Source of the DNA: Chloroflexota bacterium
Lineage (GTDB): Bacteria; Chloroflexota; Dehalococcoidia; SHYD01
Length of the DNA stretch: 35,267 bases
Direction of reading: 5' to 3'
Assembly: GCA_964200875.1 (NCBI GenBank)
Contig: CAXNDA010000001.1
Location: 1-35,267 of the forward strand
Below the pieces are notes generated by a model. The model was not told where the DNA came from, made no database searches, and saw only the letters and a list, made by a program, of their open reading frames with translations. Positions 1,117 to 16,691 of this stretch are shown here, piece by piece. The first letter of the stretch is position 1, and every line of letters begins with the position of its first letter. The position numbers and the translations under genes are program-made.

Positions 1117-1117
1117 A

Positions 1118-2134
1118 TTAGATCTTGCGGCGGAAGAGAAACAGCACGGAGCCGAATGCCACAATGCTCCAGTAGCTGATGCTGCGATCGAGCAACGCTG
1201 CGGCCACAGCCTCTTCTTTGGTGACTCCCGCCAGCATCAGCAGGCCGATCATCCCGGCTTCGACCAAGCCAAGACCGCCAGGCGTGAAGGGAACCACCGT
1301 GAGCAGTGCGTTGGCCAGCGAAAGGAAGACGGCGTGGGGAAAGCTGAGCCCCAGCCCCAGTGCCTGAATCACCAGGAACATCCGAGCCGCTTCGGTACAC
1401 CACACGGCAACGGTCACCGCTGCGCCAGAAGGAGCCTTTCGGAAGCTCCCAAGAATACCGTCCTGGAAACGGAGATAGGCTAACTGGATTCGCTTGGGAA
1501 GAAGTCGATGGACCCGTTCCCGCAGGAACCACATGGCCGCCAAGCCCACCACGCAAAGCCCCACCAGCGTGCCGGCGATAAGCAACATCTTGTCGGCCAC
1601 GTCTGCCTGTGGCCCTTCCAACCTGCCGATGAAGAGCAGCGAGGACACCAGGAGTGAGGCGAGCACCACCGTGTCGAAGGCGCGCTCCGCAACCACCGTG
1701 CCCATGGCAGCAGAGAAGCTGGCGCCGGTGCGCTGCTTAATCTCGTAGCCTCGGTAGGCGTCACCCAGCTTCGCGGGAATCAGGCAATTGGCGAACCAGC
1801 TCAGGTAGATGATGCCCGCCAAGGATCGCAACGTCGGCAGGGGCCGGTCTCGGGCGACATCAGCACTCTTCAGCAGTATCTGCCAGCGCAGCGCCCGGAG
1901 CGGGAAGGTGGTGTAGTAAGCAAGGAATGCAGCAGCGTACAGCCAGGGATCAGCTCCCCGGACCGTGTTCCAGATGGCCTCCGGGTCAAGCTCGAGCCGC
2001 GAGACGAAGAACACGATGATGCCAAAAGCCACCACGAATCCGAGGGCGGAGCGGAGCCGTAACCGGCCACTGAGCTCAAGCGGAGCGTCGTTGTTCTCGG
2101 ATTCTGGTGGGGACACGGGTGTCGTTTGGGACAT
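1118..2134 (-). CDS. Flippase-like integral membrane protein, UPF0104 / LPG_synthase_TM (MprF flippase-domain-like) family
   Basis: The ORF track gives 1118..2179. I prefer the ATG at 2134 (MSQTTPVSPPESEN...), because the longer form would run across the upstream gene's stop at 2140. It is a multi-TM protein with the blocks PLRALRWQILLKS and GDAYRGYEIKQRTGASFSAAMGTVVAERAFD, as I remember them for this family. Confidence 0.7.
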   Translation of the reverse strand: MSQTTPVSPPESENNDAPLELSGRLRLRSALGFVVAFGIIVFFVSRLELDPEAIWNTVRGADPWLYAAAFLAYYTTFPLRALRWQILLKSADVARDRPLPTLRSLAGIIYLSWFANCLIPAKLGDAYRGYEIKQRTGASFSAAMGTVVAERAFDTVVLASLLVSSLLFIGRLEGPQADVADKMLLIAGTLVGLCVVGLAAMWFLRERVHRLLPKRIQLAYLRFQDGILGSFRKAPSGAAVTVAVWCTEAARMFLVIQALGLGLSFPHAVFLSLANALLTVVPFTPGGLGLVEAGMIGLLMLAGVTKEEAVAAALLDRSISYWSIVAFGSVLFLFRRKI

Positions 2135-2139
2135 GCTTC

Positions 2140-3600
2140 CTAATGGGCAGGAGTCTCGGCAAGGTTCTCGGAACCCCATGCGCGCCCGGCCCCAAGCGCC
2201 AGGCCAAACAGCAGGCCGAGTTGTGCGCCGATGCCATGCACATACAGGTTATCAAACAAGTGGTGCACGGCGAGGACAGCGACCAATCCGACTGCTGCCA
2301 GCGTAAGGCCTGCCGGCAACGCTGACTCAGGGTGGGACTGCGTGGCGGCTCGGATGGCGCTTCGCGCTGCGTTTACTGTGCCGCCGAGGAGTGTGGCGAG
2401 CAGCGTCAGGTAGCTCAGCAGGCCCACCAACCCCATCTCGGCCAAGAGATTCAGGTAGAGGTTATGGGCGTGGCCCGGCGCTTGCGGCCAGTTGGGCAGC
2501 GCATAGGCAGGGTACGCCCGGTCGAAGTTGCCGGCGCCCACGCCAAGCAGCGGATTGTCGGCGAACATCCCCTGGGCCGCCTCCCAGATGGCCATGCGCT
2601 GCACAACGGCGAAGTTCGCGCCGGTGAGGTGCACTTCGCGGGGGTCTAACAGCGTGAGGCTGTCGAAGATGGTCGCAACCCGGGTGGCGAGGAACTCAGG
2701 AAGAATGCCGAAACCACCTAGTAACCAGACGGCACTCGCGCCAATCACCAGCAGCGGAGCTGCGAGCAACGTGCGGGGCCGATACGTGAAGGCCATGACC
2801 GCAACGCCCGCCAGCAGTGCCAGCAGGGCGCCCCGTGACAGCGATGCCAGGACCCCCAGGGTCATGACCCCGCCGGCTGTGAGCGCGATGAGAGGCAACG
2901 GTTGGACGAGGCCACGGAGGCCGTTGCGGCTGTGCGCGAACAGCAGCCCGGTCGCCAGCATGACGCCGGTGGTCAGGTAGGCTGCGAAGGGATTCGGTTG
3001 GCCGAAGCTGCCAAAGGAACGCAGATAGCCGCCGCCCAGCAGAAAACCGAGCGGACCGGCTCCGGAGATTGCCTGGTTCAAGCCACGCAATGCTTCCAGC
3101 GAACCGGCAGCGAGAATGGCAACGGTGACCACCACGGCCGCCCGGGGCTCGCGCGCCAGCGACATGCCAAGCGCCAAGGCTACGGCGAATGAAAGCCACT
3201 TGGCCAGCTCCTTGACGGTGAGGTCCAAGGCCACAGCGTCGGGCATGGAGGCGATGACTGCGAGGCAGACCAGGGCGAGCGCCCCCCAGACTGGATGCCA
3301 GAACACACCGAAGTCATGGCGGACGCAGGAGCGGGCCCACCAAATGGCAGCCGAGGCTGCTAACGCGACCTCCACCCCGCCGAGCGCCAGCCCACCCACC
3401 GGAACGCGGAAGTTGTCGCCAAACGGCACCGCGAAGGCGAGCGCAGCAGTGCTGGCGGCCGGCATGAGGGCGAGGAACACCGCCGCAACGGTGACTGCTG
3501 CGATACCTGCGGCATAGGTGACCGGTAGCGTTGCAATGGCGGCAGCGAGGGGTACGCCGGCCACCATCGCTGAAACCGCCGGGCGGGTGAGTCGGATCAA
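2140..3600 (-). CDS. O-antigen ligase-like / Wzy_C family polytopic membrane protein (copy 1)
   Basis: 486-aa ORF with many hydrophobic segments. Family blocks: FGQPNPFAAYL, SLSRGALLALLAGVAVMAF, QRMAIWEAAQGMFADNPLLGVGAGNF, GHAHNLYLNLLAEMGLVGL. The TTG start at 3600 overlaps the stop of the UXS gene (TTGA). Confidence 0.8.
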   Translation of the reverse strand: MIRLTRPAVSAMVAGVPLAAAIATLPVTYAAGIAAVTVAAVFLALMPAASTAALAFAVPFGDNFRVPVGGLALGGVEVALAASAAIWWARSCVRHDFGVFWHPVWGALALVCLAVIASMPDAVALDLTVKELAKWLSFAVALALGMSLAREPRAAVVVTVAILAAGSLEALRGLNQAISGAGPLGFLLGGGYLRSFGSFGQPNPFAAYLTTGVMLATGLLFAHSRNGLRGLVQPLPLIALTAGGVMTLGVLASLSRGALLALLAGVAVMAFTYRPRTLLAAPLLVIGASAVWLLGGFGILPEFLATRVATIFDSLTLLDPREVHLTGANFAVVQRMAIWEAAQGMFADNPLLGVGAGNFDRAYPAYALPNWPQAPGHAHNLYLNLLAEMGLVGLLSYLTLLATLLGGTVNAARSAIRAATQSHPESALPAGLTLAAVGLVAVLAVHHLFDNLYVHGIGAQLGLLFGLALGAGRAWGSENLAETPAH

Positions 3601-4556
3601 CGCTCCGCGGCTGGGGCCTTCAGTCCCAACGCTTCACTCAGCCAAGCTGCGGTACGCGCCAAGCCATCATCCAAGGGTATCGCCGGTTCCCAACCCAGCA
3701 GCCGCTTCGCCTTGCTGATATCCGGCCGCCGTTGTGCAATCTCCTCAGGCCGCGCCGCCACCTGCCGTACCTCGGAGCGAGAACCGGTGACCCGGACCAC
3801 CAGGTTGGCCAATTCCAGCACTGTGAACTCAGCGGGATTCCCCAGGTTGATCACCTCGCCCTGAGTGCCTTCGGTGAACAGCGCCCGCTGCAACCCCTCC
3901 ACCAGGTCGGCCACATAACAGAAGCTCCGGGTCTGGCTGCCGTCGCCATACACCGTCAACGGTTGGCCGCGCAACGCTTGCGTCATGAAGTTCGGTACCA
4001 CCCGGCCGTCTTCCGGCGCATTGCGCGGGCCATAGGTGTTGAAGATGCGGACAATGCGAGCGTCGAGGCCGTGCACCTGACTGTAGTTGTACGTCAACGC
4101 CTCGGCATAGCGCTTCCCCTCGTCGTAGCACGAGCGCGGGCCCACTGGGTTCACGTTGCCCCAATAGGTCTCCGACTGCGGGTGTTCCTTCGGATCGCCG
4201 TACACCTCGGAGGTCGAAGTGACGAGGAACCGGGCGTTGTGACGTTGGGCGAGCTGCAGCGCATGCAGCGTTCCCTGCGAATTGGTGAGCATGGTCTCGA
4301 TCGGGTACCGGCCGTAGCCCTCGGGGCTGGCAGGGCTCGCCATGTGGAAAAGCGCGTCGCAGGGAAGGTCCGGCAACGGGTCGCACACGTCATGGAATCG
4401 GTATTCGAAGCCGGGCTGTTGTTCCAGATGCGCAATGTTGACGCGGCGGCCGGTAAGCAGGTTATCGAGCACCACAACGCTATGGCCGGCGGCGAGTAAT
4501 GCCTCCGCAAGGTGCGAGCCGACAAAGCCGGCTCCACCGGTGATCACGATGTTCAT
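3597..4556 (-). CDS. uxs: UDP-glucuronate decarboxylase (UDP-xylose synthase), extended SDR
   Basis: 319 aa. Motifs: MNIVITGGAGFVGSHL Rossmann motif, TSTSEVYGDPKEHPQSETYWGNVNPVGPRSCYDEGKRYAE (the YxxxK context typical of UXS) and RIFNTYGPR. It has 4-nt overlaps with both neighbouring genes. Confidence 0.88.
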   Translation of the reverse strand: MNIVITGGAGFVGSHLAEALLAAGHSVVVLDNLLTGRRVNIAHLEQQPGFEYRFHDVCDPLPDLPCDALFHMASPASPEGYGRYPIETMLTNSQGTLHALQLAQRHNARFLVTSTSEVYGDPKEHPQSETYWGNVNPVGPRSCYDEGKRYAEALTYNYSQVHGLDARIVRIFNTYGPRNAPEDGRVVPNFMTQALRGQPLTVYGDGSQTRSFCYVADLVEGLQRALFTEGTQGEVINLGNPAEFTVLELANLVVRVTGSRSEVRQVAARPEEIAQRRPDISKAKRLLGWEPAIPLDDGLARTAAWLSEALGLKAPAAER

Positions 4557-5944
4557 GCAGTGGTCCGGTAAGGGCGGAGTGACTGTTCGGCCACCGCGGC
4601 CAGGGCGACGGTGAGCCAGAACAGGAAGGCGAGGTCAATCAGGAAGTAGCTATTGTCGATGAGGCCGTGCACCAAGAAGTCCACCATGCTGGCAGCCAGT
4701 GCCAGCCCCGCCCACTTGGCCCATACGTCCTGCTGGGCGACCAAACGGCGGACGTGACCCCAGAACTGGCACTGAACCAAGAGCAGGGCCGCCAGCCCTA
4801 GTATGCCCATGCGTAACCAGAAGTCAAGAAACAGGTTGTGGGGGTGCGAGATTTCGGGCTCCAGTTTGGCCTCCGCCAGGATGTACCGGGGGTACTGATA
4901 CAGAAAGTTGTCGAGCCCTACGCCGAACAACGGGTGGTCCAGGGCCATCGCCCAAGCTGCCTGCCACACATACACCCTTTGCAGCAAAGGCAGCAGCTGC
5001 CCCATGCGTTCGCCGGCCACTGCCGGTAACACCACTACGGCGACCAGCATCACGGTGGCGGCACCCAACGCCAACCGCCAACGCCAGCCTGCCAGCAGAA
5101 GGAGCCCCGCTGCGGCGATGCCGATAAGCGCACCCCGCGAGTAGGTGAAGTAGAGCACCACCGTCATCAACGCGAGAGCAACCGCTGGAGTTACGCCCAG
5201 GGCGCGGGAACGCCTGACCAGGCCTGCAAACAGCACCAGTGCCAGCGCCACGGGCATGAGGCGTCCCAGCGCCAGGGCCAGGTGGTTGGGGGAGTGGTAG
5301 ATGGCCAGAATCCGTTTGACGCCACCGGTGTTCTCCACCACCCCTATGACCCAGTAGTGGTACAGGCTGAACAGCGCCATGCCAATGCCCAGCCCGGCGA
5401 GGGCCATGAGCGCGCGCCAGACGTCGGCCATGCTGCGCCACGTTGTGGTTGCCAGTAGATAGAACAGCGCCGGTTCAGCGACCACTGTGCGGAGTTCTCG
5501 GAGCGCCTCTTTCATCTGGCCGGTGAAGGGCAACGTGGCCAGGGCCGCCAGCAGAAACGCCGCGGGAGGAAGCAATGCGGTGCGCCACGAGACTTCCTGT
5601 GCCGGTACGCCAGGCGGGCGCCTCAGCAGCCGGGCACTCCATGCGGCGGCGCACAGCAGCACGGTGAATTCGACCAGACTGACCTCGAAGGGGTCGGCTC
5701 GGCCCAGCGCCGTAAGGTCGAAGACCTTGGGGGCCCGATAGGCTGGGGCGGTCAGCGGCACCAACAGCAGGGCGATATCGAGGCGCCACCAGGCCGCCAC
5801 GCCAAAGGCCACGGTGAGCGGTACGGCCAGCCACCACGGCGCGAAGTAGTAGGCCGCCAACAATCCCACGAGCAGGGCGCCCGCCAAAAGGTCGCCGCTG
5901 GTCTGGCGGGTGAGCGTCGCGTCGGTGCTCATCACGCTGGTCAT
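4553..5944 (-). CDS. O-antigen ligase-like / Wzy_C family polytopic membrane protein (copy 2)
   Basis: 463 aa. Family blocks: YHSPNHLALALG, FTYSRGALIGIAAAGLLLL, RVYVWQAAWAMALDHPLFGVGLDNF, SHPHNLFLDFWLRMGILGLAALLL. ATGA overlap with the GT-C gene's stop. Confidence 0.8.
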   Translation of the reverse strand: MTSVMSTDATLTRQTSGDLLAGALLVGLLAAYYFAPWWLAVPLTVAFGVAAWWRLDIALLLVPLTAPAYRAPKVFDLTALGRADPFEVSLVEFTVLLCAAAWSARLLRRPPGVPAQEVSWRTALLPPAAFLLAALATLPFTGQMKEALRELRTVVAEPALFYLLATTTWRSMADVWRALMALAGLGIGMALFSLYHYWVIGVVENTGGVKRILAIYHSPNHLALALGRLMPVALALVLFAGLVRRSRALGVTPAVALALMTVVLYFTYSRGALIGIAAAGLLLLAGWRWRLALGAATVMLVAVVVLPAVAGERMGQLLPLLQRVYVWQAAWAMALDHPLFGVGLDNFLYQYPRYILAEAKLEPEISHPHNLFLDFWLRMGILGLAALLLVQCQFWGHVRRLVAQQDVWAKWAGLALAASMVDFLVHGLIDNSYFLIDLAFLFWLTVALAAVAEQSLRPYRTTA

Positions 5945-7569
5945 TCTACGGAGTACACCATGAACACCGGTGTCCCGCTGCGCTCGTAGAAGGTCTGCTC
6001 CAACTTGGTGCGCTTTCCGGCTTGGGCCGCCGCTTGCTCAAAGGCTGCCATTCTGGGAAACGCAGTGTAGTCTTCGCCGTGGAACAGGTAGCGCTGCTCG
6101 GCGGTAGCCAAGGGTAACCGCGCCGCGAAGCCGGGGTCGGGTTCGGCCGTGTAGCCGAAGACCTCGAGCGGGCGGACGCGCCCAGCCGTCACCAATTGCA
6201 CCGTGTAGCGGATGCCCCAATCCATAGCGAGCGGCGCCGGCACCCCGTTTTCGTCAAGGTAGGAGGCCAGCTTGTACACCGCATCGGAATGACCGCGATG
6301 CCCGCCGGTGCGTACCAGAGCCTCGTGATACTGTGCGTCTACCGTCAAGTTTCCCGCTGCCAGGATGGCGATGGTGAGGGGCGCGGCAATGTGCCCCAGC
6401 CGACGGAGAGCGCCGCTCTGCGCCCGGACCGCCGCAGCCAGTGCGACCACAGGAATTGCGCACAAGAGCGGCAGCAGGATGAACAGATGGGTGGGCCAAA
6501 TACCGGAGATGGTGACCGGGCTTTGGACCACCACCAAGAACGTGAAGCCCAGCAGCAGAGCAATCGCGCCACGCAGCGGCGGCCAGCGTACGGCAAGAGC
6601 GCAAGCTGTGGCTGCGCCCACCAGCACCGCGGGCGGGAACAGGTGGTTGCCGTATAGGCCGCCCAGGAACCAGAAGTGCCCGCCGTGCAGCAGAGCCCAA
6701 AGCGTATCGAGCCTCGCCAGCAGGTTTGCTGGATAGTCGGCGTTGTGGACGCCGTAGGTGGTGACTTCTGCGCTCTTGGCCACCGCATCCAGCGTGGCGC
6801 CCGTCTGCAGGTTGTAGATCAACAGCGGCGCCGCCCCGCCCACGAATGCCACGGCGACGGCGACGGCCGGCTTCAGCGCACGCCTCAGGCGGGCAACCGC
6901 GCCCCCAGGATTGCGCCAGGTCCGCCAGAGCGTTGGCCCCTGCCACGCTAATCCTATAAATCCGAGCGCCAGGATGGCCCAGAGGAAGAGGATCTTGGTG
7001 CTTAAGCCCAGGCCCAGCAGCAGGCCGGCGCCGGCCAGCCACCATACGCTGCCGGTGCGGCGCCAAGCCAGCAGCAACAGCAACGCCCCCATCAGCCAAA
7101 GCGCCATTAGCGAGCTGACATGAACCCCCTGGCGGGCGTAAAAGACCCAGGACGGGTGGGTGGCGAGCAGCAAGGCCGCACCCGCGCCCGCCATTCGGCT
7201 CGAAAACAGGTGGCGAACCCAGACGGCGGTGAGGGCCACGGTCAGCGCTCCGCCTGCGATGGTCATGAGCCGCAGCGCGCCGACGCTGGGGCCGAGCACG
7301 CTGAAGAACGCCAGCGAGGCGTAGGTATGCACAGCGCCCACATAGTCGAATGCCATGAGCGGCCACGTGCGGCCAAAGAGTGCGATTCCGTGGGGCCGGA
7401 CGAGTTCCGGCTGTCGTCCTTGCAGCAGATCGAGCGCTGGGATCGCGTCCGCAGCCTCATCGTAGTACAGCCCCGGCAGCGTCAGGTGGTAGGCCGCCAG
7501 GGCGATGAAGACGAATGCCGGGACTGCGACCAGGGCGGTCTCCAACGCCCATGAACGGCGGAGGTTCAC
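5941..7569 (-). CDS. GT-C fold glycosyltransferase, ArnT/PMT-like (family 39/83 type), with a C-terminal soluble domain
   Basis: 542 aa with a GTG start. The first loop after TM1 reads LPGLYYDEAADAIPALDL (the acidic DE motif of GT-C enzymes). About 11 or more hydrophobic segments follow, including GLGLSTKILFLW. The last ~150 aa are non-hydrophobic. Confidence 0.7.
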   Translation of the reverse strand: MNLRRSWALETALVAVPAFVFIALAAYHLTLPGLYYDEAADAIPALDLLQGRQPELVRPHGIALFGRTWPLMAFDYVGAVHTYASLAFFSVLGPSVGALRLMTIAGGALTVALTAVWVRHLFSSRMAGAGAALLLATHPSWVFYARQGVHVSSLMALWLMGALLLLLAWRRTGSVWWLAGAGLLLGLGLSTKILFLWAILALGFIGLAWQGPTLWRTWRNPGGAVARLRRALKPAVAVAVAFVGGAAPLLIYNLQTGATLDAVAKSAEVTTYGVHNADYPANLLARLDTLWALLHGGHFWFLGGLYGNHLFPPAVLVGAATACALAVRWPPLRGAIALLLGFTFLVVVQSPVTISGIWPTHLFILLPLLCAIPVVALAAAVRAQSGALRRLGHIAAPLTIAILAAGNLTVDAQYHEALVRTGGHRGHSDAVYKLASYLDENGVPAPLAMDWGIRYTVQLVTAGRVRPLEVFGYTAEPDPGFAARLPLATAEQRYLFHGEDYTAFPRMAAFEQAAAQAGKRTKLEQTFYERSGTPVFMVYSVE

Positions 7570-7605: not shown

Positions 7606-9219
7606 CTAGCGCTTACCTGAGTTCTGCATGAACGAAGCAGCCACGAGGAGGCCTCCCACCAGAGCTAGGCCGGCGAACATGAAGAACGGCCCGAAGTCCG
7701 GCTTCATCTCCACCGCAACGCGGTCGAAGCCCCAAGCCGGCCCAGAAACGCGCTCGAGTGCGATGGTGTGCTCGCCCGGACGCAGGCCCTTGACCAACGG
7801 CACCAAAACGAACTCACCGCCACCAGCCGGGATGTCGACCGCGCTCTGCGAACCGTCAACTTTGGCCAGCAGACGGACCGGTTCGGCTGGTGGCGGCATG
7901 ATCAGGCCGATGCCGGTTCCGCTGAACCTAATGCTGAGGGTCGCGGTGTCTCCGGTGGTTTGCAGCAGCCGTCCCCCCGAGGCGCCGGGTTTGTTCGTCA
8001 GTTGCCAAGGGCCCCGTGCGTCGACCGGCGTGGCCAGTTCTTCGTACTCGCCGGGCGTGGCAACGGCCAACCGATCGTGCGCCGCCTTGACGCGGTCGTA
8101 GACCGGGCGTGGCGTGAAGTCGGTATCCACCATGCGGAAGAAGTAGTCGGACCGTTCGATGGGGAAGTCACCAACTTGCCGGAAGTACCAGATGTTGAGC
8201 GTGCCCACCCAGCCCCACTTGCGGGTAAGGGCTATCGCGTCGGCCGTGTACTGTGCCTGCTGCTCTTCCGATACCCGCCGCCAGATGAGCTTCTCCGGCG
8301 ACATGCTCTCGGGCGAGGCGTTCCAGCCGAACTCGTTGAACCAGATGGGTTTGTCCTTGTCTCCATTCCGCTCCATAACCTCGCGCAGCAGTTGCAGGCG
8401 GCCGAAATTCAGGGCGTTCGCGTTGGGCGTCGCGTCGGGCGGCAGGTCAAACCCGTAGGCGTTTGCCGAAAGGGCGTCGAAGTAACGGCCTGCCCCGGCC
8501 TTGTACAGAGCGTCTAAATACTTCAGCTCATTGAGGTTGAACGCCGATTCTTCCAGCGTTTGAGCGAGCGGAGCGCTGAGTACCACCACATTGGGATCGG
8601 CCGCCTTCGCCTGCTCATAGGCAATCTGCAGCAGGCGGGCGTAGCCGGGCGCATCGGGGCGGCCGGTCCACTCCACTGCCAGATTCGGCTCGTTCCAGAT
8701 CTGCAAGAACTGCACCCTGCCTTTGTAGCGGTCGACTAGCGCTCGCACGAAGTCGCCGTAGTCCTCGAAGCGGGTGGGTGGCGCAGTCTCTGGGCTGCCC
8801 TCGGGGCGGGCCCACACGGGTGGGCGATCCAAGCGCGCGATGATGCGTATGCCATGCTGCTGCGCGAGGTCCACGATCTGGTCGTACTTCTCCCAAGTGC
8901 TCTTGCGGAACTTGTCGTCGAAGAAGTAATTCTTGCGAGGCTCGATCTCCTCCCAGGCGAAGATCTGCTTCATCCAGCCGATGCCGGCCTCTTTGGCCAT
9001 GCGGACCGTCTGCTCCTTCTTCCACGGCTCGACTTCGCGGTCGAGGAAGAAATTTGCGCCGACGGGGTTCACGTCAGTCAGCGGGATCGGTGGGATGCTG
9101 CGGAGTTCGGGGGGCGCCGCTGCGGTGATGGGGTTAGGCGCCCAGGCCAAGCCAATAAGGCCGACAAGGAGCAGCAGGATGGCGATGACGCGGACTGGAG
9201 GAAGGCGCAGGAGGGTCAA
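7606..9219 (-). CDS. Membrane-anchored clan GH-A (GH5/GH39-like) glycoside hydrolase, paralog A
   Basis: 537 aa, with a TTG start and GGAG 6 nt upstream. N-terminal signal/anchor VRVIAILLLLVGLIGLAWA. Candidate acid/base Glu in FLQIWNEPN and candidate nucleophile in IWFNEFGW. A beta-rich C-terminal region ends in a TM segment, FFMFAGLALVGGLLVAASF. Alignable by eye with the ORF at 13193..14899. Confidence 0.65.
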   Translation of the reverse strand: MTLLRLPPVRVIAILLLLVGLIGLAWAPNPITAAAPPELRSIPPIPLTDVNPVGANFFLDREVEPWKKEQTVRMAKEAGIGWMKQIFAWEEIEPRKNYFFDDKFRKSTWEKYDQIVDLAQQHGIRIIARLDRPPVWARPEGSPETAPPTRFEDYGDFVRALVDRYKGRVQFLQIWNEPNLAVEWTGRPDAPGYARLLQIAYEQAKAADPNVVVLSAPLAQTLEESAFNLNELKYLDALYKAGAGRYFDALSANAYGFDLPPDATPNANALNFGRLQLLREVMERNGDKDKPIWFNEFGWNASPESMSPEKLIWRRVSEEQQAQYTADAIALTRKWGWVGTLNIWYFRQVGDFPIERSDYFFRMVDTDFTPRPVYDRVKAAHDRLAVATPGEYEELATPVDARGPWQLTNKPGASGGRLLQTTGDTATLSIRFSGTGIGLIMPPPAEPVRLLAKVDGSQSAVDIPAGGGEFVLVPLVKGLRPGEHTIALERVSGPAWGFDRVAVEMKPDFGPFFMFAGLALVGGLLVAASFMQNSGKR

Positions 9220-9274
9220 ACACGACTCCGAGGTGGGTTGGAGGGTTCGGCCTTGAAGGCCATGCTAGCCGTGA

Positions 9275-9280
9275 AGTATA
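9275..9280 (-). promoter_or_regulatory. Possible -10 box (TATACT on the minus strand) for the 9219..1 operon
   Basis: Locally AT-richer spacer between the rsmG stop (9325) and the GH start (9219). The plus strand reads agtata at 9275-9280. The only -35 candidates (GTGAAA/TGAAAT) are weak. Confidence 0.25.
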
Positions 9281-9324
9281 CCAGAGCTACGAGCAGTATT
9301 TCACTGCATATGACGAATCGACGA

Positions 9325-10047
9325 CTAGAGCGGCCGCTTGGCCGGCATCCCGGGCCGCCGAGGGTAGCGCTCTGGTGTGGGCCCGGCCTTCTCTACCAGG
9401 ATCACGCTGCGATCATCGCCGAGAGCGTCGAGGGTCACCGGCTCTACCGATCGCAGCCAGCCGTCCAGCAGTGTAAGGGCGTGGGTTGCCGTCGCCACCT
9501 CCTGCGCCATGTCTCCCTTCTTCAGCGCAATAGCCAGGCCGCCAACTCGCAGGAAGGGAAGCTGATATTCCACCAGTACCGCCAACGCATCGACAGCGCG
9601 GGTGATCGTGACATCGAAGGCACCACGGAACTGCGGGAGGTGCCCCTCGGTCTCGGCCCGGCCGGTCACCACGCTGACATTCGGCAACCCAAGGTCCGTC
9701 ACCATGGCGGACAGAAACGCCGTCTTACGAGCGTGTGCCTCGAGGAGTGTGACCCTTAGTCCGGGTCTGGCGATGGCGAGCGGAAGGCCGGGAAAGCCGC
9801 CACCCGAGCCGATATCGAGCAAGGTCTTTGCCTGGTCGGGAATGTAAGGCAGCGCCGTGAGTGAATCGAGAAAATGCTTGACATAAATGTCAGAAGTATC
9901 GGTGATCGCCGTCAGGTTTACCCGCTGGTTCCACTCCTGGAGCAGTGCGCAGAAGCGTGCGAACTGCTCCAGGAGTGGAACCGTTAGGACAACGCCGAGT
10001 TCGGCGGCTCCGAGGGTCAGGGTGCTTTCGGGTGATGGTGGTGTCAT
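9325..10047 (-). CDS. rsmG: 16S rRNA (guanine527-N7)-methyltransferase RsmG (GidB)
   Basis: Motifs: QFARFCALLQEWNQRVNLTAITDTSDIYVKHFLDSL and LLDIGSGGGFPGLPLAIARP (SAM-binding). I prefer the ATG at 10047 (MTPPSPEST...). The track's 10146 start adds 33 aa that are partly encoded by a hairpin repeat. Confidence 0.85.
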   Translation of the reverse strand: MTPPSPESTLTLGAAELGVVLTVPLLEQFARFCALLQEWNQRVNLTAITDTSDIYVKHFLDSLTALPYIPDQAKTLLDIGSGGGFPGLPLAIARPGLRVTLLEAHARKTAFLSAMVTDLGLPNVSVVTGRAETEGHLPQFRGAFDVTITRAVDALAVLVEYQLPFLRVGGLAIALKKGDMAQEVATATHALTLLDGWLRSVEPVTLDALGDDRSVILVEKAGPTPERYPRRPGMPAKRPL

Positions 10048-10123
10048 GGTGGAGTCGGGGAGGGTGGCCGGCTGGCCTACGGGTAAGAACTCAGTGTTTC
10101 GGGTGCTGTGGGCATAAACCCGT

Positions 10124-10148
10124 GTCATGCCGACGCAAGGAGGCATCC
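10124..10148. repeat. Short hairpin repeat gtcATGCCgacgcaaggaGGCATcc
   Basis: 5-bp inverted arms ATGCC/GGCAT around a 10-nt loop. It belongs to the same family as 10187..10212, in the opposite orientation. Confidence 0.55.
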
Positions 10149-10186
10149 CTTCGTTCCCGGACAGTTACCACCACCCGGTACTAAAG

Positions 10187-10212
10187 GATTCCTCACTCCG
10201 TTCGGAATGACA
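10187..10212. repeat. Short hairpin repeat ggATTCCtcactccgttcGGAATgac (inverted copy of the 10124 element)
   Basis: Its reverse complement, gtcATTCCgaacggagtgaGGAATcc, aligns with 10124..10148. The G-to-T change in the 5' arm is matched by a C-to-A change in the 3' arm. Confidence 0.55.
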
Positions 10213-10307
10213 TGGCCCCCTCAACTGTGAGCTCGTACGCCTACGGGTCGGGCGGCGGTTTCGAGACGTGGTTATGGTACACTACCGATGCGGTTGAACC
10301 GCCTGTT

Positions 10308-10811
10308 ATGCACACGCTAAACACCCCACGCACCCTGGCGCGTTGCCTCTCGCCCCTCCTGTGCCTGCTCTCCACCATCGCCTGCGATCGTGTAGCAGGT
10401 ACGTCGGCCACGCCCGCGCTGCTGGCTACGCCCACGAGCGTGCGTCCGGCCAACTCACCGGCGCCGCTGGTGACTCCGTCGGCCGCCGGCACACCCGTCG
10501 GGAACGACAACCTGAAGGTGGCGCGCCCCACCGTAAGGCAAGAGGTTAAGAGTCCGATCAGCGTGCAGGGGCAGGCTAGGGTCTTCGAGGCTAACGTGCA
10601 GATTGCTTTGAAGGACAAGGGCGGGCAGACGCTCGCGAGCAGCTTCACCACCGCTTCGAAAGGCGCGCCCGATTGGGGCGATTACAAGGCTGACCTTCCC
10701 TTTCGGGTGACCGTCCAACAGGAGGCTACTCTGGAGGTGTTCGCGCTGAACGCGCGGGACGGTTCACCGCAGTTTGTGGTGGCAGTGCCGGTCACGCTGC
10801 TGCCGAACTGA
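10308..10811 (+). CDS. Secreted or lipoprotein with a Gmad2-type immunoglobulin-like domain
   Basis: I prefer the ATG at 10308: MHTLNTPRTLARCLSPLLCLLSTIAC is a signal peptide with a Cys at a lipobox-like position. An A/P/T/S linker follows, then VKSPISVQGQARVFEANVQIALKDKGGQTL...GAPDWGDYKADLPF...LEVFALNARDGSP, as I remember for Gmad2 domains. Confidence 0.55.
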   Translation: MHTLNTPRTLARCLSPLLCLLSTIACDRVAGTSATPALLATPTSVRPANSPAPLVTPSAAGTPVGNDNLKVARPTVRQEVKSPISVQGQARVFEANVQIALKDKGGQTLASSFTTASKGAPDWGDYKADLPFRVTVQQEATLEVFALNARDGSPQFVVAVPVTLLPN

Positions 10812-10839
10812 GCGTGGCCGCTTCGGGTGACGTGATCCG

Positions 10840-11952
10840 GTGCGCGTAGGCATCGACGCTCGGTTGCTGGCCTACCGTCAGGGCGGGACGAGCGTGTACA
10901 CGCGGCAACTGCTGCACCATCTCCCCCTGGCTGCGCCCAAGGATGACTTCGTGGCGCTGACCAGCCGGAAGCAGCCCCGCTATGCCGGACAGCCCGCCGC
11001 AGTCGACAGCCATCCGTTGTGGACGCCGCCGCACCATCACTTGGAGCAGTGGAGCCTCCCCGTGGAGCTGGTGCCGGCGAGGTTGGACCTGCTGCACAGT
11101 GTTGATTTTATTGCGCCCACCCACCGGCCCTGCCCGGCGGTCATCACGGTGCACGACCTCGCCTTTCTGGTGTATCCCGACACTATGACGACTGAGAGCC
11201 ACCGCTACTATGGGCAGATTGGCAAAGCGGTTGCCGCTGCCGACGCTATCATCGCGGTGAGCGAGGCCACCCGGCGTGATCTGGAACGGCTGTTGCATGT
11301 GCCGCCCGAGCGGGTTCAGGTAGTGCACCATGGCGTGGCTGATGTCTACGGGCCCCGGCCGGCCGAGGAGGTCGAAGCATTCTGCAAAGCTCACGAGTTG
11401 CCTTCGACCTTCATGCTCTGGGTGGGGGCACTGGAGCCCCGCAAGAATCTGCCCTGCCTGTTCCGCGCCGTCGCCTCCGCCACGCCATCGCTGCCCGATG
11501 CTCTGCGGACTCTCGTCATCGTGGGCGTCAAAGGGTGGACCTTTGAGCAAGCGCAGCAGGAGTTCGAACGCCTGGGTCTGGCGGCGCAGACGATCCTGTT
11601 CGGCGATGCGACCGAGGATGACTTAGCGATGCTTTACAACGCTGCCTGGGTGTTCGCCTACCCGTCGCTGTACGAGGGCTTCGGCCTGCCGCCGCTCGAG
11701 GCGATGGCATGCGGCACACCGGTGCTGAGCGCCAACGTATCGGCCATGCCCGAGGTGCTGGGAGATGCGGCGCGCTTCTTTGACCCGCAAGACGACCAAG
11801 CCTTGGCTGGCCTTTTACGAGAACTGGCTCTCGATGAGCCGCAGCAGCAGCGTCTGGCAGCCGCAGGCAGGGCGCGGGCTGCGGGCTTCACCTGGGAGGC
11901 GACCGCCCGTGCCACGCTCGACGTCTATCGCGGTGTGGTGCAGCGCTCATGA
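10840..11952 (+). CDS. Glycosyltransferase family 4 (paralog of the gene at 1..1116)
   Basis: GTG start. Blocks: MRVGIDARLLAYRQGGTSVYTRQLL, TVHDLAFLVYPD, LEPRKNLPCLFRAV, FAYPSLYEGFGLPPLEAMACGTPVLSAN. They are collinear with the same blocks in the left-edge GT4. Confidence 0.85.
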   Translation: MRVGIDARLLAYRQGGTSVYTRQLLHHLPLAAPKDDFVALTSRKQPRYAGQPAAVDSHPLWTPPHHHLEQWSLPVELVPARLDLLHSVDFIAPTHRPCPAVITVHDLAFLVYPDTMTTESHRYYGQIGKAVAAADAIIAVSEATRRDLERLLHVPPERVQVVHHGVADVYGPRPAEEVEAFCKAHELPSTFMLWVGALEPRKNLPCLFRAVASATPSLPDALRTLVIVGVKGWTFEQAQQEFERLGLAAQTILFGDATEDDLAMLYNAAWVFAYPSLYEGFGLPPLEAMACGTPVLSANVSAMPEVLGDAARFFDPQDDQALAGLLRELALDEPQQQRLAAAGRARAAGFTWEATARATLDVYRGVVQRS

Positions 11953-13196
11953 AGGTGCTCTTCGTCACCATCGAGCCACCCTGGCCGATCATCGGCGGCA
12001 CTCCCATGCGCTCGTACAACCTCATCATGCGGATCGCGCAGAACCACGAGGTCTATGTGGCGTGCCCAGCCACCGTGAGCCAGGTGGCGGTGATGCAAGA
12101 ACTCTTCGGCGCCTCAGTGAAGCGCATCGTCTCGGTGCCACTGCCGCCGCACCGTTCGCTGTGGCGGAGAGCAGTCGGGACGCTCATTGACCCAGCGCCG
12201 GACCTGGCCTACCGCAACTTTCAGCCTCAGCTTGCGCACGCCATCCGGGAGCAGCTCCGCGACGTTGCCATCGACGTCGTGCACCTCGTGGGGCTCGAGT
12301 CGGTGGGTGCGCTCATGGGGCCCGACTGGGCGCCGCCCCAGGCGAAGGCGGTGCTGGTGGATGAAGTGAATGCCGAGCACGTATTGCAGCAACGGGCCCA
12401 GCGGGTGGAGCTGCGGCAGCCGCGGCGCTGGCCCGGCGCTCTGTACAGTTGGATACAGGCCCGCAAGCTCAAGAACTACGAGCGACGGGCATTGGTTTCG
12501 GCGGGTGCGGTCACCTCGGTGTCACCCGGCGATGCGGCGATTCTACGCCGGCTCGCGCCGGGTGTGGCCATCCACGTGGTGCCAAATGGCGTGGACACCA
12601 AGCTGTACGCGCCGGCGTCCTCCGCTCCGGAGGGCAGCGACATCGTGTTCTCAGGGACCATGGACTTCCGCCCGAATGTCGACGCGGTCCGCTGGTTTGT
12701 GGCCGAAATCTGGCCGGCGGTGCGTGCCGCGGCACCGGAAGCCCGCCTGATCATTGTCGGCCGCAATCCCGCGCCCCCCGTCCGCCGGCTCGCTGCGGCT
12801 GACGTCATCATCACCGGTCAGGTGCCCGATGACCTGCCGTACCTGCAGCAGGCGGCGGTCTACGTGGTGCCCATGCGTTTCGGCGGCGGTAGCCGGCTGA
12901 AGCTGCTGCAGGCCATGTCGTGCGCGCTCCCCATGGTCTCCACCACGCTGGGCGCCGATGGCGTGGCCGTCACGCCGGGCGAGCAATTGCTAATAGCAGA
13001 CGATCCTGACGACTTCGCCCGAGCTGTGCTGCGCCTGCTGGCCCACCCCGAGGAGGGCGCTCGCCTGGGGGTAGCTGGGCGGAAGCTCGCAGCGGCCTAT
13101 GACTGGGACGTGGTGGCCGAACAGCTTGAGGCCGCGTACGCAGCGGCAGTCGCCCGGGCTGATACCGGCTCAGCCGAACGAACCCCGCGCGGATGA
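11949..13196 (+). CDS. Glycosyltransferase family 4 (second type)
   Basis: 415 aa. Blocks: MKVLFVTIEPPWPIIGGTPMRSYNLI, FSGTMDFRPNVDAVRWFVAEIWPAV, VPMRFGGGSRLKLLQAMSCALPMVST. ATGA overlap with the upstream GT4. Confidence 0.8.
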   Translation: MKVLFVTIEPPWPIIGGTPMRSYNLIMRIAQNHEVYVACPATVSQVAVMQELFGASVKRIVSVPLPPHRSLWRRAVGTLIDPAPDLAYRNFQPQLAHAIREQLRDVAIDVVHLVGLESVGALMGPDWAPPQAKAVLVDEVNAEHVLQQRAQRVELRQPRRWPGALYSWIQARKLKNYERRALVSAGAVTSVSPGDAAILRRLAPGVAIHVVPNGVDTKLYAPASSAPEGSDIVFSGTMDFRPNVDAVRWFVAEIWPAVRAAAPEARLIIVGRNPAPPVRRLAAADVIITGQVPDDLPYLQQAAVYVVPMRFGGGSRLKLLQAMSCALPMVSTTLGADGVAVTPGEQLLIADDPDDFARAVLRLLAHPEEGARLGVAGRKLAAAYDWDVVAEQLEAAYAAAVARADTGSAERTPRG

Positions 13197-14899
13197 CACG
13201 GCGGCTGAGTGGGCTTGGGTTCGCAGCGGCCGTTCTGCTCGGCGGAACGGTCTTGCTGCTGACGGCTTCGGGCACGGCCTCCCGCGAGCATTGGGCGGAA
13301 GACCTTACCGGTGAGGCCAGCCCAGTCCAGCAGGCGAAGGCGCTGGTTGGTCTGGTGCGCCAGCGCCCAATTCCCACCGCCGATTTCGCCCCAACCACGC
13401 ACGCTGGCCTCCCCCCCCTGGGAGCGAACACCTTCTTTGAGCAGGAGGTCGAAGAGTGGAAGGTGCGCCGCAGTATGGAGATGCTGCGCGATGCTGGGGT
13501 GAAGTGGATCCGGCAAGAGTTCCCTTGGGATCGCATTGAACCCTCGGTGAAAGGACGCTACGAGGACGCCTTCGGCTCCACGTGGACCAACTACGACCGG
13601 ACGGTGCGGTTGGCGCAGGAATACGGCCTGCAAGTCATGCCTCGTCTTACCCTGCCGCCGAACTGGACACGTGCCGACAACTCGGTGCCCAGAGCGCCGC
13701 CCGATAACTACAACGACTACGGGGATTTCGTGGCGGCGGTGGTCGAGCGCTATCGGGGCAGGGTGCACTACTACCAGCTCTGGAACGAACCGAACACCGT
13801 ACTGGAGTGGGGGAAGCCACCGAACGCCGCTGACTTCGTACGCCTGCTGCGCGTCGGTTACGAACGGGCGAAACGGGCCGATCCGGCGGTCGTAATCATC
13901 GCCCCGGCCCTTTCGCCGACCATCGGCACGCCCGACGGCGCCAACGTGAGCGACCTGACGTTTCTCCAGGAGATGTACGATCAGGGCGCATCCGCAGCCT
14001 TCGACATCATGAGCGCGCAGGGGTACGGCCTGTGGACCGGGCCCGGCGATCGGCGGGCTGATGCCTACCGGACCAACTTGGCGCGCGTGCAATTGGTGCG
14101 CGAGCTGATGGTAAAGAACGGCGATGGCCGCAAGCCGATATGGCTGGCCGAGATGGGCTGGTCGGCGCTGCCGCCCGATTTTCCGGGCGATGCGATCCAT
14201 GGGCGGGTGACCGAGGAGCAGCAGGCGCGGTATACCGCGCAGGCCCTGCAGCGCATTCAGGCGGAATGGCCGTGGGTTGGCGTTACCTTCCTGTGGCACT
14301 TCCGCCGCGTGTCTGATGAGCAGCGCTCGCAGGCCGATTTCTATTTCCGCATGGTCGATCCCGACTTCACCGCACGCCCGGTCTATGGCGCCGTGCAGGC
14401 CGTGGGCGCCCAACCGCCGGTGTTGAACTATGGTTGGCGGCCCATCACCCATGTCGCCATCACGCGGTCGTCCGGTTGGGAATCGGCCGTGCGGACGGTC
14501 GACGGCATCGGGGTGCCGGCACTCGCCGCCCGGGACCCTGGCGAATCCTTGTCGTTTCGGGTGCGGGGCCGCCAGGTGCTGCTGCACCTACCGCCGGTGC
14601 CGGGCGGTGGCTCGTTGGCAGTGACGGTCAACCAGCGGCCGAGCGGGGTGATCCGGCCACGGGCCGTTGGGGCCGGGCGGGCCGCTGCCACGCTTCTGCC
14701 CGGCACCAACGCCTTACCCGACGGCGTGAACACCATCGAACTGAGGCCGGTGGGCGACGGTTTGGTCGTGCTCGCCGGCATCCAAGTACTGACTGCTGAC
14801 CGAGAGCCTGCTCCGATGGCGGCGGGCGTCATGGTGCTGCTGGCGGCATTGCTGGCACTGCGGCTCACGTTCGGGGCGGGTGCGGGGAGGGGCCGGTGA
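13193..14899 (+). CDS. Membrane-anchored clan GH-A (GH5/GH39-like) glycoside hydrolase, paralog B
   Basis: 568 aa. N-terminal anchor GLGFAAAVLLGGTVLLL. Candidate catalytic blocks YYQLWNEPN and IWLAEMGWS, plus DFYFRMVDPDFTARPVYGAVQA. C-terminal TM MAAGVMVLLAALLALRL. Collinear with 7606..9219. Confidence 0.65.
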   Translation: MTRRLSGLGFAAAVLLGGTVLLLTASGTASREHWAEDLTGEASPVQQAKALVGLVRQRPIPTADFAPTTHAGLPPLGANTFFEQEVEEWKVRRSMEMLRDAGVKWIRQEFPWDRIEPSVKGRYEDAFGSTWTNYDRTVRLAQEYGLQVMPRLTLPPNWTRADNSVPRAPPDNYNDYGDFVAAVVERYRGRVHYYQLWNEPNTVLEWGKPPNAADFVRLLRVGYERAKRADPAVVIIAPALSPTIGTPDGANVSDLTFLQEMYDQGASAAFDIMSAQGYGLWTGPGDRRADAYRTNLARVQLVRELMVKNGDGRKPIWLAEMGWSALPPDFPGDAIHGRVTEEQQARYTAQALQRIQAEWPWVGVTFLWHFRRVSDEQRSQADFYFRMVDPDFTARPVYGAVQAVGAQPPVLNYGWRPITHVAITRSSGWESAVRTVDGIGVPALAARDPGESLSFRVRGRQVLLHLPPVPGGGSLAVTVNQRPSGVIRPRAVGAGRAAATLLPGTNALPDGVNTIELRPVGDGLVVLAGIQVLTADREPAPMAAGVMVLLAALLALRLTFGAGAGRGR

Positions 14900-15864
14900 G
14901 GGCCGGCGTCTCGGTCATCATGACGGTGCTGAATGAGGCGGCCTCGCTGCCCGCGGTCCTGCAAGGGCTCGAACAGCAGACCCGACGGCCCGACGAGGTG
15001 GTGGTCGTCGACGGCGGCAGCACCGATGGCACGTTGGCGCTGCTGCACGGGTACGCAGGCCCGCTGACGCTCCGTGTGCTGGAACTTCCAGGGGCGAACA
15101 TCTCCCAAGGCCGCAACGCTGCAATCGAGGCCGCTACAGGCCCGGTGATAGCCATCACTGATGCTGGGGTTCGCCTGGAGCCTGCGTGGCTGGCGGCGCT
15201 GGTGCAACCTATGGAGGATGACGGCGCCGTAGCGGTGGCGGGCTTCTTCCATTCGGACCCTGCCGGCCTGTTTGAAGCTGTCCTGGGCGCGACCACACTG
15301 CCGGCAGCGTCGGACGTGAACCCGGCGACGTTCCTGCCCTCCAGCCGGTCAGTGGCGGTCACCAAAGAGGTGTGGCGGCGAGCTGGGGGGTACCCCGAGT
15401 GGCTGGACTACTGTGAGGATCTGCTTTTTGACTTCGCGGTGCTGAACCTGGGTGTACGCTTTGCTTGGGCCCCGGCCGCGCTGGCGCACTTTCGCCCCCG
15501 CCCCACCCTGGCGGCGTTCTTCAAACAGTACTACCGCTACGCCAGAGGCGATGGTAAGGCCGGCCTTTGGCGGCGGCGGCACGCTATCCGTTACGCCACC
15601 TATGCGGCTGGGGCTCTTGCCACGCTCGCCGTGCCGCGATTCCCCTGGCTGCTCCCCGCGATGCTGGCGGCTGGCATCGGCTACTGCGCCACACCGATCC
15701 GCCGGTTGCGCCCGTGGCTGCAGGGGCGTCCCGCAAGCGTGTGGTGCAGGGCCCTTCCGCTGGTGCCGTTGATACGGCTGACGGGGGATGTGGCGAAGTT
15801 GCTGGGCTATCCCGCCGGGTTATGGTGGCGCTTGCGGAACCCCGCTAGCCGGGGACAACGGTGA
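14896..15864 (+). CDS. Glycosyltransferase family 2 with a hydrophobic C-terminal region
   Basis: GTG start in a GTGA overlap. Motifs: VSVIMTVLNEAASLPAVLQGLEQQTRRPDEVVVVDGGSTDGT, ITDAG (DxD-like), GGYPEWLDYCEDLLFD. C-terminal hydrophobic stretches: YATYAAGALATLAVPRFPWLLPAMLAAGIGY and ALPLVPLI. Confidence 0.8.
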   Translation: MRAGVSVIMTVLNEAASLPAVLQGLEQQTRRPDEVVVVDGGSTDGTLALLHGYAGPLTLRVLELPGANISQGRNAAIEAATGPVIAITDAGVRLEPAWLAALVQPMEDDGAVAVAGFFHSDPAGLFEAVLGATTLPAASDVNPATFLPSSRSVAVTKEVWRRAGGYPEWLDYCEDLLFDFAVLNLGVRFAWAPAALAHFRPRPTLAAFFKQYYRYARGDGKAGLWRRRHAIRYATYAAGALATLAVPRFPWLLPAMLAAGIGYCATPIRRLRPWLQGRPASVWCRALPLVPLIRLTGDVAKLLGYPAGLWWRLRNPASRGQR

Positions 15865-16681
15865 CCGTCGCCCAGCGCGTTGTGCCGAGGGCGAGCGACG
15901 CGTTGCCGTTTCGCAAAGCGACTTCAACGTAGCCGCTGCTGCCAACCAGGGCTACCAGAGGCCCGCCATCCTGGTAGGAGCTGCTGAGGCCGCGGATGGT
16001 CGCCCCACCGATATGGAACACCGGCCGGGTGGGGAGCCCTTCAGGCACAAGGTTGGTTATGAGATCGCCGTACCCGTCCACGTGGATGACGCTTCCGGCG
16101 ACGGCGCCCCCGGGTTCGCGGGCCGGCCTGGGCGGTGCAAAGGCCTGCACCTCAACGGTCGGTTTCCCCACGTGATCCACCGACAAGCCGTTGGCAAGGT
16201 GCGCGGCAACGGGGGCGAAGACGTCTCGACCGTGGAAGGTGTTGCTCACGGTTGCTCGCATAAGCGCTCGGTCGGTGATCACGTGCGCGGTAACCAGCGA
16301 AGGCAGGGGTGTTGCGCACACCTGAGGTGGCGCCGGCTCCGCGACCGCCGTGCCTTCGCGATGGCGGGCAACAACGTACGAGAAAACTCCGTTGTCGGGC
16401 CCCACGAACGTTCCATGGGGCGACTTCAGCACGATGGGGTGTCGCTGGGTGCCGACACCCGGGTCTACCACGCAAACGTAGATGGTACCGGGCGGAAACG
16501 CGTCGATGCAGGTTTCCAGCAGGAAGGCGCCAGCGTAGATGTCTTGGGGCGGGACGGCATGGGTGATGTCCACAATGGTGGCATCCGGTGCTATCCCCAG
16601 GACCACGCCCTTCATCGACGCTACGTAAGCGTCCTGGGCGCCGAAATCGGTGAGCAGCGCGATGACTGGTCGCCGCGCCAT
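15845..16681 (-). CDS. SAM hydrolase / SAM hydroxide adenosyltransferase family protein (DUF62, fluorinase/chlorinase-like fold)
   Basis: 278 aa. Motifs: VIALLTDFGAQDAYVASMKGVVLGIAPDATIVDITHAVPPQDI, VCVVDPGVGT, TFHGRDVFAPVAAHLA. Its 3' end overlaps the convergent GT2 by 20 nt. Confidence 0.8.
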   Translation of the reverse strand: MARRPVIALLTDFGAQDAYVASMKGVVLGIAPDATIVDITHAVPPQDIYAGAFLLETCIDAFPPGTIYVCVVDPGVGTQRHPIVLKSPHGTFVGPDNGVFSYVVARHREGTAVAEPAPPQVCATPLPSLVTAHVITDRALMRATVSNTFHGRDVFAPVAAHLANGLSVDHVGKPTVEVQAFAPPRPAREPGGAVAGSVIHVDGYGDLITNLVPEGLPTRPVFHIGGATIRGLSSSYQDGGPLVALVGSSGYVEVALRNGNASLALGTTRWATVTVVPG

Positions 16682-16691
16682 GGCCCGGGTG

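Follow-up and report, generated by a model that had tools for sequence, protein, structure and literature searches.

Many polysaccharide pathways encode a degrader of their own product, and the reason is still debated, even for PslG of Pseudomonas aeruginosa. The pathway hydrolases and lyases BcsZ, PelA and AlgL follow this logic: the gene of the degrader belongs to a biosynthetic system that needs the enzyme in order to work properly. These three enzymes belong to folds and families unrelated to the proteins described below, and none of them is known to us either to form an old pair of paralogs or to be fused with a polymerase or ligase. A dedicated hydrolase of glycoside hydrolase (GH) family GH39 in a Wzy-type polysaccharide cluster is already known in PslG (PDB 4zn2, 5bx9, 9g17), for which association with the inner membrane and hydrolytic activity each play a part in Psl biosynthesis (PMC6813494) and which has been proposed to clear misdirected polymer (PMC13434223). 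Here, a stretch of 35,267 nt from a Chloroflexota genome of the class Dehalococcoidia (GCA_964200875.1, contig CAXNDA010000001.1, positions 1 to 35,267; the window) was analysed for two GH genes, GH#1 (7606..9219, minus strand, 537 aa) and GH#2 (13193..14899, plus strand, 568 aa). An earlier description made from the letters of the window (the original prediction) had taken them for paralogous, doubly membrane-anchored hydrolases of clan GH-A, one per arm of a glycan locus. GH#1 (A lineage) and GH#2 (B side) are ancient paralogs. With a probability of about 0.6, they are predicted to be PslG-like hydrolases that are tethered to the membrane and accessory to a xylose-linked system for the assembly of an envelope glycan.

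Both open reading frames (ORFs) were present at these coordinates, and every motif block quoted in the original prediction was found in both proteins. GH#1 is read from a TTG start codon with GGAG 6 nt upstream. GH#2 shares 4 nt at its start with the stop of the upstream glycosyltransferase (GT) gene of family GT4, and another 4 nt at its stop with the start of the GT2 gene that comes next. In a BLASTP alignment of 477 columns (E=1e-99), 39% of the residues are identical and 54% positive, a similarity far beyond chance, and the claimed paralogy holds. The motifs of GH#1 are QIWNEPN (E177), WFNEFGWN (E296), and DYFFRMVDTDFTPRPVY; those of GH#2 are QLWNEPN (E199), WLAEMGWS (E320), and DFYFRMVDPDFTARPVY.

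Among solved structures, PslG was the best sequence match of GH#2 (E=3.5e-10), and GH#1 matched the GH39 enzyme BcGH39 of Bacteroides cellulosilyticus WH2 (PDB 5jvk, E=3.4e-10, the top phmmer hit) and PslG (E=1.5e-8). The GH39 alignments cover >300 residues with WNEPN and E-x-G-W in register. PslG also came first when the GH#1 model was searched against the PDB using Foldseek (E=8e-26, template modelling score of 0.67 over the target), and the top 14 structural matches were all GH39. In PslG, Glu165 is the acid/base and Glu276 the nucleophile (PMC11912335), and E177/E296 of GH#1 and E199/E320 of GH#2 align to this pair. This agrees with the GH39-like pattern of an acid/base Glu in NEP and a nucleophile Glu some 110-120 residues further on. 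The codons lie at 8689..8691 (Glu177) and 8332..8334 (Glu296) on the minus strand and at 13787..13789 (Glu199, predicted acid/base) and 14150..14152 (Glu320, predicted nucleophile) on the plus strand. The pair is invariant in 102/102 homologous GH domains of the main sample, and the NEP and E-x-G-W motifs rank among the most conserved columns. Neither loss of the catalytic Glu residues nor assignment to a non-glycosidase TIM-barrel family was found, since E177/E296 align with the catalytic Glu of PslG and the 14 highest-ranking structures are GH39. Sequence and models thus support an assignment to clan GH-A, as originally predicted, and within it to GH39-like proteins with PslG as the closest solved relative and with intact catalytic Glu. 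The only exception seen to an intact nucleophile Glu was in one genus, where a standalone A-type lipoprotein (L100:443-1699, plus strand, and L101:11035-12291, minus strand) has Ala at the nucleophile (WLSAYGW) and WHEPN at the acid/base; this copy is probably inactive, judging by its residues, and is paired with an intact GH~Wzy_C fusion (~ marks domains in a single frame) about 6 kb away.

The four-part architecture that the original prediction had described was seen in both AlphaFold2 models and in the hydropathy profiles, the helical ends being predicted. The GH#1 model (predicted local distance difference test score, pLDDT, of 92.3; predicted template modelling score, pTM, of 0.88) has a helix at 7-26, a (beta/alpha)8 barrel at 53-384, a beta-sandwich at 390-504, and a helix at 510-534; the GH#2 model (pLDDT 90.5, pTM 0.90) has a helix at 7-25, a barrel at 76-405, a beta-sandwich at 414-534, and a helix at 539-566. 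In the hydropathy profiles, each protein has two hydrophobic segments and no others, and these lie at its ends (residues 9-27 and 512-530 in GH#1, 5-23 and 542-560 in GH#2). On the minus strand, the N-terminal hydrophobic helix of GH#1 (aa 9-27, with two Arg before it and P-N-P after it) is encoded at 9139..9195, the catalytic barrel (from AlphaFold2 and Foldseek) at 8068..9063, the beta-sandwich at 7708..8052, and the C-terminal transmembrane (TM) helix with its basic tail (…NSGKR) at 7618..7692. The beta-sandwich is the equivalent of the GH39 accessory domain and has a weak CE2_N-like Pfam match. For GH#2, on the plus strand, the corresponding parts are the N-terminal helix (aa 7-25) at 13211..13267, the barrel at 13418..14407, the beta-sandwich at 14432..14794, and the C-terminal TM helix with its basic tail (…GRGR) at 14807..14890.

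Hydropathy, the positive-inside pattern, and the AlphaFold2 helices predict that the catalytic domain lies outside the cytoplasm. A P-(K/N)-P motif directly follows the N-terminal hydrophobic segment in GH#1 and is conserved in its clade. Signal peptidase I does not tolerate Pro at +1, which argues against N-terminal cleavage in the GH#1 clade and suggests, by signal-peptidase rules, that the GH#1 segment is a probable uncleaved signal-anchor. The double anchoring of the original prediction stands as far as a hydrophobic helix at both ends is concerned; anchoring at both ends of GH#1 and GH#2 is a prediction, as a signal peptide that is cleaved off would in principle be another reading of the N-terminal segment. 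The GH~GT2 and GH~Wzy_C fusions described below fit a C-terminal helix that runs from outside to inside.

PslG resembles GH#1 and GH#2 in its (beta/alpha)8 barrel and C-terminal beta-sandwich, in the aligned NEP acid/base and E-W-G-W nucleophile motifs, and in an N-terminal membrane anchor, which in GH#1 and GH#2 is predicted. Its gene, too, lies in a biosynthetic cluster, that of the polymer which PslG cuts, and the pathway employs a polymerase of the Wzy type. Among solved structures, PslG is the best match by structure and one of the two best by sequence, at about 18-19% identity in the structural alignment. Unlike them, it is without a C-terminal TM helix, a paralogous partner, or a reported polymerase fusion, and it works in a diderm periplasm with Wzx, a polysaccharide co-polymerase (PCP; PslE), and an outer membrane polysaccharide export protein (OPX; PslD), none of which is encoded in the window locus. 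BcGH39 and the GH39 beta-xylosidases (XynB1, PDB 2bs9, 1w91) share the two-domain fold and the positions of the catalytic motifs, but these enzymes are soluble, catabolic, untethered, and encoded outside glycan-assembly operons.

Searches with GH#1 and with GH#2 each returned >1,000 relatives, nearly all from Chloroflexota metagenome-assembled genomes (MAGs), under names such as ‘hypothetical’, ‘cellulase family’, ‘endo-1,4-beta-xylanase’, and ‘PslG’. Among 122 close homologs, a hydrophobic N-terminal end was found in 116, a C-terminal one in 109, and both in 104, the C-terminal segment typically being followed by an Arg-rich tail. The family was carried by 109/301 sampled Chloroflexota genomes (57/169 genera), with at least two copies in all but six of the 109; among the small genomes listed from the window's own class, none had it. 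The full-library search (threshold E≤1e-30) gave 777 clusters at 50% identity. The layout had been thought unusual, and this was not borne out: the anchor, barrel, sandwich, anchor form occurs in 104/122 close homologs and the A/B pairing is conserved in many genomes, so that this layout is the norm in a Chloroflexota family that is large and uncharacterised. Typical members in an Acidobacteriota MAG (L037) and a Sphingomonadaceae MAG (L060, which also has GT4 genes and a UXS-like short-chain dehydrogenase/reductase (SDR) gene) are nested inside Chloroflexota clades, and mis-binning is a more likely source of these titles than transfer. Three proteins of 1145-1407 aa (P0339, P0345, P0379) have the GH match at about residues 690-1030, in the C-terminal half, and their architecture is left unexplained by the seed hidden Markov models (HMMs).

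The partners of the family were counted using HMMs built from Pfam-validated seeds. A neighbour census using BLASTP only had been too insensitive for membrane partners, and iterated HMMs from single window proteins had drifted, the fused GH~Wzy_C proteins pulling GH domains into the Wzy_C model. The HMM census gave a recurrent cassette in several classes, GH-(GH~)Wzy_C-UXS-Wzy_C-flippase-like-GT4, in which UXS is a UDP-xylose synthase; in Anaerolineae, B-side copies are followed instead by GT-C proteins of the PMT_2 type with 800-890 aa. Single-frame fusions of a B-side GH with Wzy_C (GH~Wzy_C) were found in 10 loci of the first sample, in 16/20 further genome regions from other genera, and in 46/144 representative clusters. 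These fusions keep the anchor helix, which is followed by a cytoplasmic linker and the Wzy_C membrane domain. A GH~GT-C (PMT_2) fusion (L091:2113-5508, minus strand, 1132-aa frame) and a GH~GT2 fusion (L093:3042-6071, minus strand, 1010-aa frame) were confirmed using Pfam, both with a TM helix and a basic stretch between the domains, and two further GH~GT-C architectures occur among the representative clusters. In the window, GT-C and GT2 are also just the kinds of partner encoded directly after GH#1 and GH#2, respectively. The standalone A copies beside fused B copies are often 375-420 aa long, without the beta-sandwich and C-terminal helix; their twin-arginine and lipobox-like N-termini suggest that they would be membrane-tethered likewise.

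The GH domain of the GH~Wzy_C fusions of other Chloroflexota (L045-L075, L094-L110) belongs to the same family and to the same B side as GH#2. The fusion loci share with the window the UXS gene, a second Wzy_C gene, the flippase-like gene, and the GT4 gene, and their standalone partner is of the A lineage, like GH#1. They differ in that neither window copy is fused, in that the window A copy has retained its beta-sandwich and TM anchors, where a fused copy is often accompanied by a short lipoprotein with twin-arginine and lipobox signals, and in that the window B copy has been relocated to a second, divergent arm between GT4 and GT2 genes.

The phylogeny that the original prediction had called for was built, and the duplicated, diverged pair proved to be old. 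In the tree built from 237 full-length homologs, a single branch separates the relatives of GH#1 from those of GH#2. When 102 GH domains taken from species-representative genomes were analysed using IQ-TREE, an A clade of 67 rows that includes GH#1 was obtained, with a Shimodaira–Hasegawa-like approximate likelihood ratio test (SH-aLRT) value of 100. When 33 more domains were added, 25/25 standalone copies adjoining a fused copy or lying close to one were placed in the A clade and 26/26 Wzy_C-fused copies on the B side with GH#2, where the GT-C- and GT2-fused copies also lie; FastTree support for the split in this enlarged tree was only 77. By these trees, the duplication is older than the separation of Chloroflexia, Thermomicrobia, Dehalococcoidia, and Anaerolineae, and both lineages have been retained together. 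As regards the processing or transglycosylase couple suggested in the original prediction, the ancient, co-retained A/B pair and the fusions with Wzy_C, GT-C, and GT2 show that the family is closely coupled in function with the assembly enzymes.

Within the window, the GH genes are embedded among glycan-assembly genes, as the original prediction had said, in operons that also hold GT4, GT2, GT-C, Wzy_C, and UXS genes. On the minus strand, GH#1 is directly followed by a PMT_2-type GT-C glycosyltransferase gene (5941..7569, 542 aa, about 9 TM segments), and then by genes for Wzy_C protein b (4553..5944, O-antigen ligase/polymerase-like, in many relatives encoded immediately after the GH or in one frame with it), a UDP-glucuronate decarboxylase (3597..4556, the UXS), Wzy_C protein a (2140..3600), a flippase-like membrane protein (1118..2179, LPG_synthase_TM/TIGR00374), and a GT4 glycosyltransferase (1..1164) whose 3' end lies beyond the left edge of the window. 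The match of the SDR gene at 3597-4556 to human UXS1 is clear (E=3.5e-106), the next class of matches being at E=1e-41 or weaker. On the plus strand, two GT4 genes (10840-11952 and 11949-13196, together 10840..13196) lie upstream of GH#2 in the same operon, and a GT2 gene (14896..15864) directly downstream. Overlaps of 4 nt join GT-C, Wzy_C b, UXS, and Wzy_C a, and likewise GT4, GT4, GH#2, and GT2. The claim of one copy per arm is correct for GH#1 on the minus arm and GH#2 on the plus arm, with the qualification that rsmG (9325-10146, minus strand) and a Gmad2-domain gene (10212-10811, plus strand) lie between the arms. A scan of the window for promoters and terminators gave sites no more numerous than in shuffles. 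Since the cluster has a UDP-xylose synthase gene, its glycan probably contains xylose; GH39 includes beta-xylosidases.

The whole two-arm locus and its flanking housekeeping genes recur in L006 and L007 at about 55% protein identity. On a 2.36-Mb contig (L090), the locus is kept with GH#2 and without GH#1, and the GT-C gene is reduced to a remnant of 185 aa (5627-6184, minus strand) between Wzy_C and rsmG, which points to a lineage-specific deletion of the GH#1 and GT-C module. Elsewhere in the window, an ORF of 278 aa (15845-16681, minus strand) matches (R)-S-adenosyl-L-methionine hydrolase and overlaps a plus-strand ORF (15788-16804, 338 aa) that has no family match and is probably spurious; a SAM_HAT gene is syntenic in L006, L007, and L090. 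The window's genome also encodes two distant clan GH-A paralogs, one of 647 aa (G000:C101:4100-5083; L003:850-2793, minus strand) with WNEPN and TEFGW, which is extended at length beyond its C-terminal side but has no TM anchor there, and one of 620 aa (G000:C187; L004:344-2206, plus strand) with WNEPD.

GH#1 and GH#2 would represent the A and B lineages of Chloroflexota-wide, retaining, GH39-fold, PslG-like glycosidases. Each protein is predicted to insert N-in, with Arg residues ahead of the first helix, to place its barrel and beta-sandwich outside the cytoplasmic membrane, and to return through the C-terminal TM helix so that the basic tail is cytoplasmic. The C-terminal helix may hold the enzyme beside the membrane enzymes encoded by its neighbours, the lipid-carrier-dependent GT-C and the polymerase/ligase-type Wzy_C for GH#1 and GT2 for GH#2, and the same junction would have become a covalent fusion in other genomes. 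By analogy with PslG, the ectodomains may cut the cluster's own nascent glycan during polymerisation or ligation at the outer face of the membrane, and such cleavage could serve chain trimming, release, or the clearance of intermediates that were wrongly assembled. GH#1 and GH#2 would then differ in the linkage that they attack or in the stage at which they do so. In cultured Dehalococcoidia (Tepidiforma), a space of about 40 nm lies between the membrane and the S-layer (PMC10284905), and a space of this type could house the action of such an enzyme.

Several observations weigh against this account. Pfam matched no family for GH#2 and reported the GH39 model PF01229 for neither protein; GH#1 barely reached the cut-off of GH5 (23.7 vs 23.5 bits), with GH42, GH10, and CE2_N below threshold. 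NCBIfam likewise gave no family for GH#1 or GH#2, the sole match being a GH1 model at E=0.003, and fused homologs match PF01229 weakly (E=0.001-0.009). With the curated model unmatched, GH39-like rather than GH39 is the best label, and the proteins possibly form a distinct subfamily. No Wzx, PCP, or OPX gene was found in the locus, so the assembly machine differs from that of the Psl system. GH#1 is dispensable for the core pathway, because the L090 lineage has lost GH#1 and GT-C while the rest of the locus persists. Some Anaerolineae homologs of the A lineage stand in non-biosynthetic contexts, one (L089) adjoining a GH51 arabinofuranosidase gene and oxidoreductase genes and others an AI-2E transporter gene, and a biosynthetic role need not therefore hold for every member of the family, part of which may be catabolic. 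The idea that the GH replaces a chain-length regulator was unsupported, because Wzz-domain genes occur elsewhere in 12/16 carrier genomes, that of the window included; none of these stands beside the GH genes. In the window's genome, the Wzz (PCP) domain protein is a 357-aa open frame at G000:C11:9954-10235 (plus strand), away from the locus. A three-component (GT2, flippase, GT-C) side-chain glycosylation system was not adopted either, since the GT2 protein (14896..15864) is without a clear GtrB/ArnC-like C-terminal TM pair.

The preference for tethered hydrolases was weighed against three other roles. The GH39 fold implies a retaining mechanism, and the glycosyl-enzyme intermediate could be passed to a carbohydrate acceptor, so that GH#1 and GH#2 would be transglycosylases that cross-link the glycan or attach it to the wall or to S-layer glycan as a cut-and-join couple with Wzy_C. 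The obligate-looking coupling to a joining enzyme through the widespread GH~Wzy_C fusions would suit such a role, and specificity for donor and for acceptor could come from the two conserved paralogs. However, no characterised GH39 enzyme is known to be dedicated to transglycosylation, PslG as the nearest relative acts as an endo-hydrolase, the two Wzy_C proteins are already candidates for polymerase and ligase, and sequence does not discriminate transfer from hydrolysis; transfer is considered unlikely. A similarly low probability is given to a wider form of the idea, in which a GH ectodomain and an adjacent or fused Wzy_C or GT-C make up an obligate cut-and-join machine specific to monoderm Chloroflexota, the GH setting chain length or moving the finished chain off its lipid carrier and onto the wall or S-layer, and A and B acting at successive steps. 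If this were true, the machine would take over the jobs of co-polymerase and ligase in a previously undescribed mode of Wzy-type glycan assembly, and the natural fusions would offer a direct way to ask why a polysaccharide pathway has a hydrolase of its own.

Still less probable is a catabolic task, in which the proteins would be glycosidases of the cell surface that break down polysaccharide from outside (for instance, xylan or beta-glucan) for nutrition, their position among GT genes being incidental. GH39 does contain beta-xylosidases and beta-glucosidases, homologs are annotated as ‘cellulase family’ or ‘endo-1,4-beta-xylanase’, and one lies beside a GH51 arabinofuranosidase gene and sugar oxidoreductase genes; against this, GH#1 and GH#2 are translationally coupled in biosynthetic operons whose synteny is kept across classes, about one-third of the representative clusters are fused to Wzy_C, with GT-C and GT2 fusions existing as well, and no sugar transporter or catabolic gene was found in the locus, where a nearby SBP_bac_5 gene has no adjoining permease gene. 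That one or both proteins are non-catalytic glycan-binding scaffolds (pseudoenzymes) placing the polymer for Wzy_C or GT-C is very improbable. The genus with Ala for the nucleophile Glu shows that a non-catalytic role is tolerated at least there, but GH#1 and GH#2 both have the two Glu residues, which no domain among the 102 lacks and whose motifs belong to the best-conserved columns of the alignment.

In the literature searched, no description of this Chloroflexota GH family or of its fusions was found; the C-terminal anchor, the phylum-wide A/B pair, and the repeated fusions with Wzy_C, GT-C, and GT2 were not found there. If the tethered, PslG-like role holds, a degrading enzyme would be physically tied to assembly enzymes, through tethers at both ends, the A/B pair, and the fusions, and the coupling of cutting and joining would be directly testable. 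The family is large and environmentally abundant, yet it is missed by Pfam and NCBIfam and mostly labelled ‘hypothetical’ or ‘cellulase’. Because it escapes these models and bears such labels, metagenomic surveys of carbohydrate-active enzymes may count enzymes of Chloroflexota envelope biogenesis as biomass degraders.

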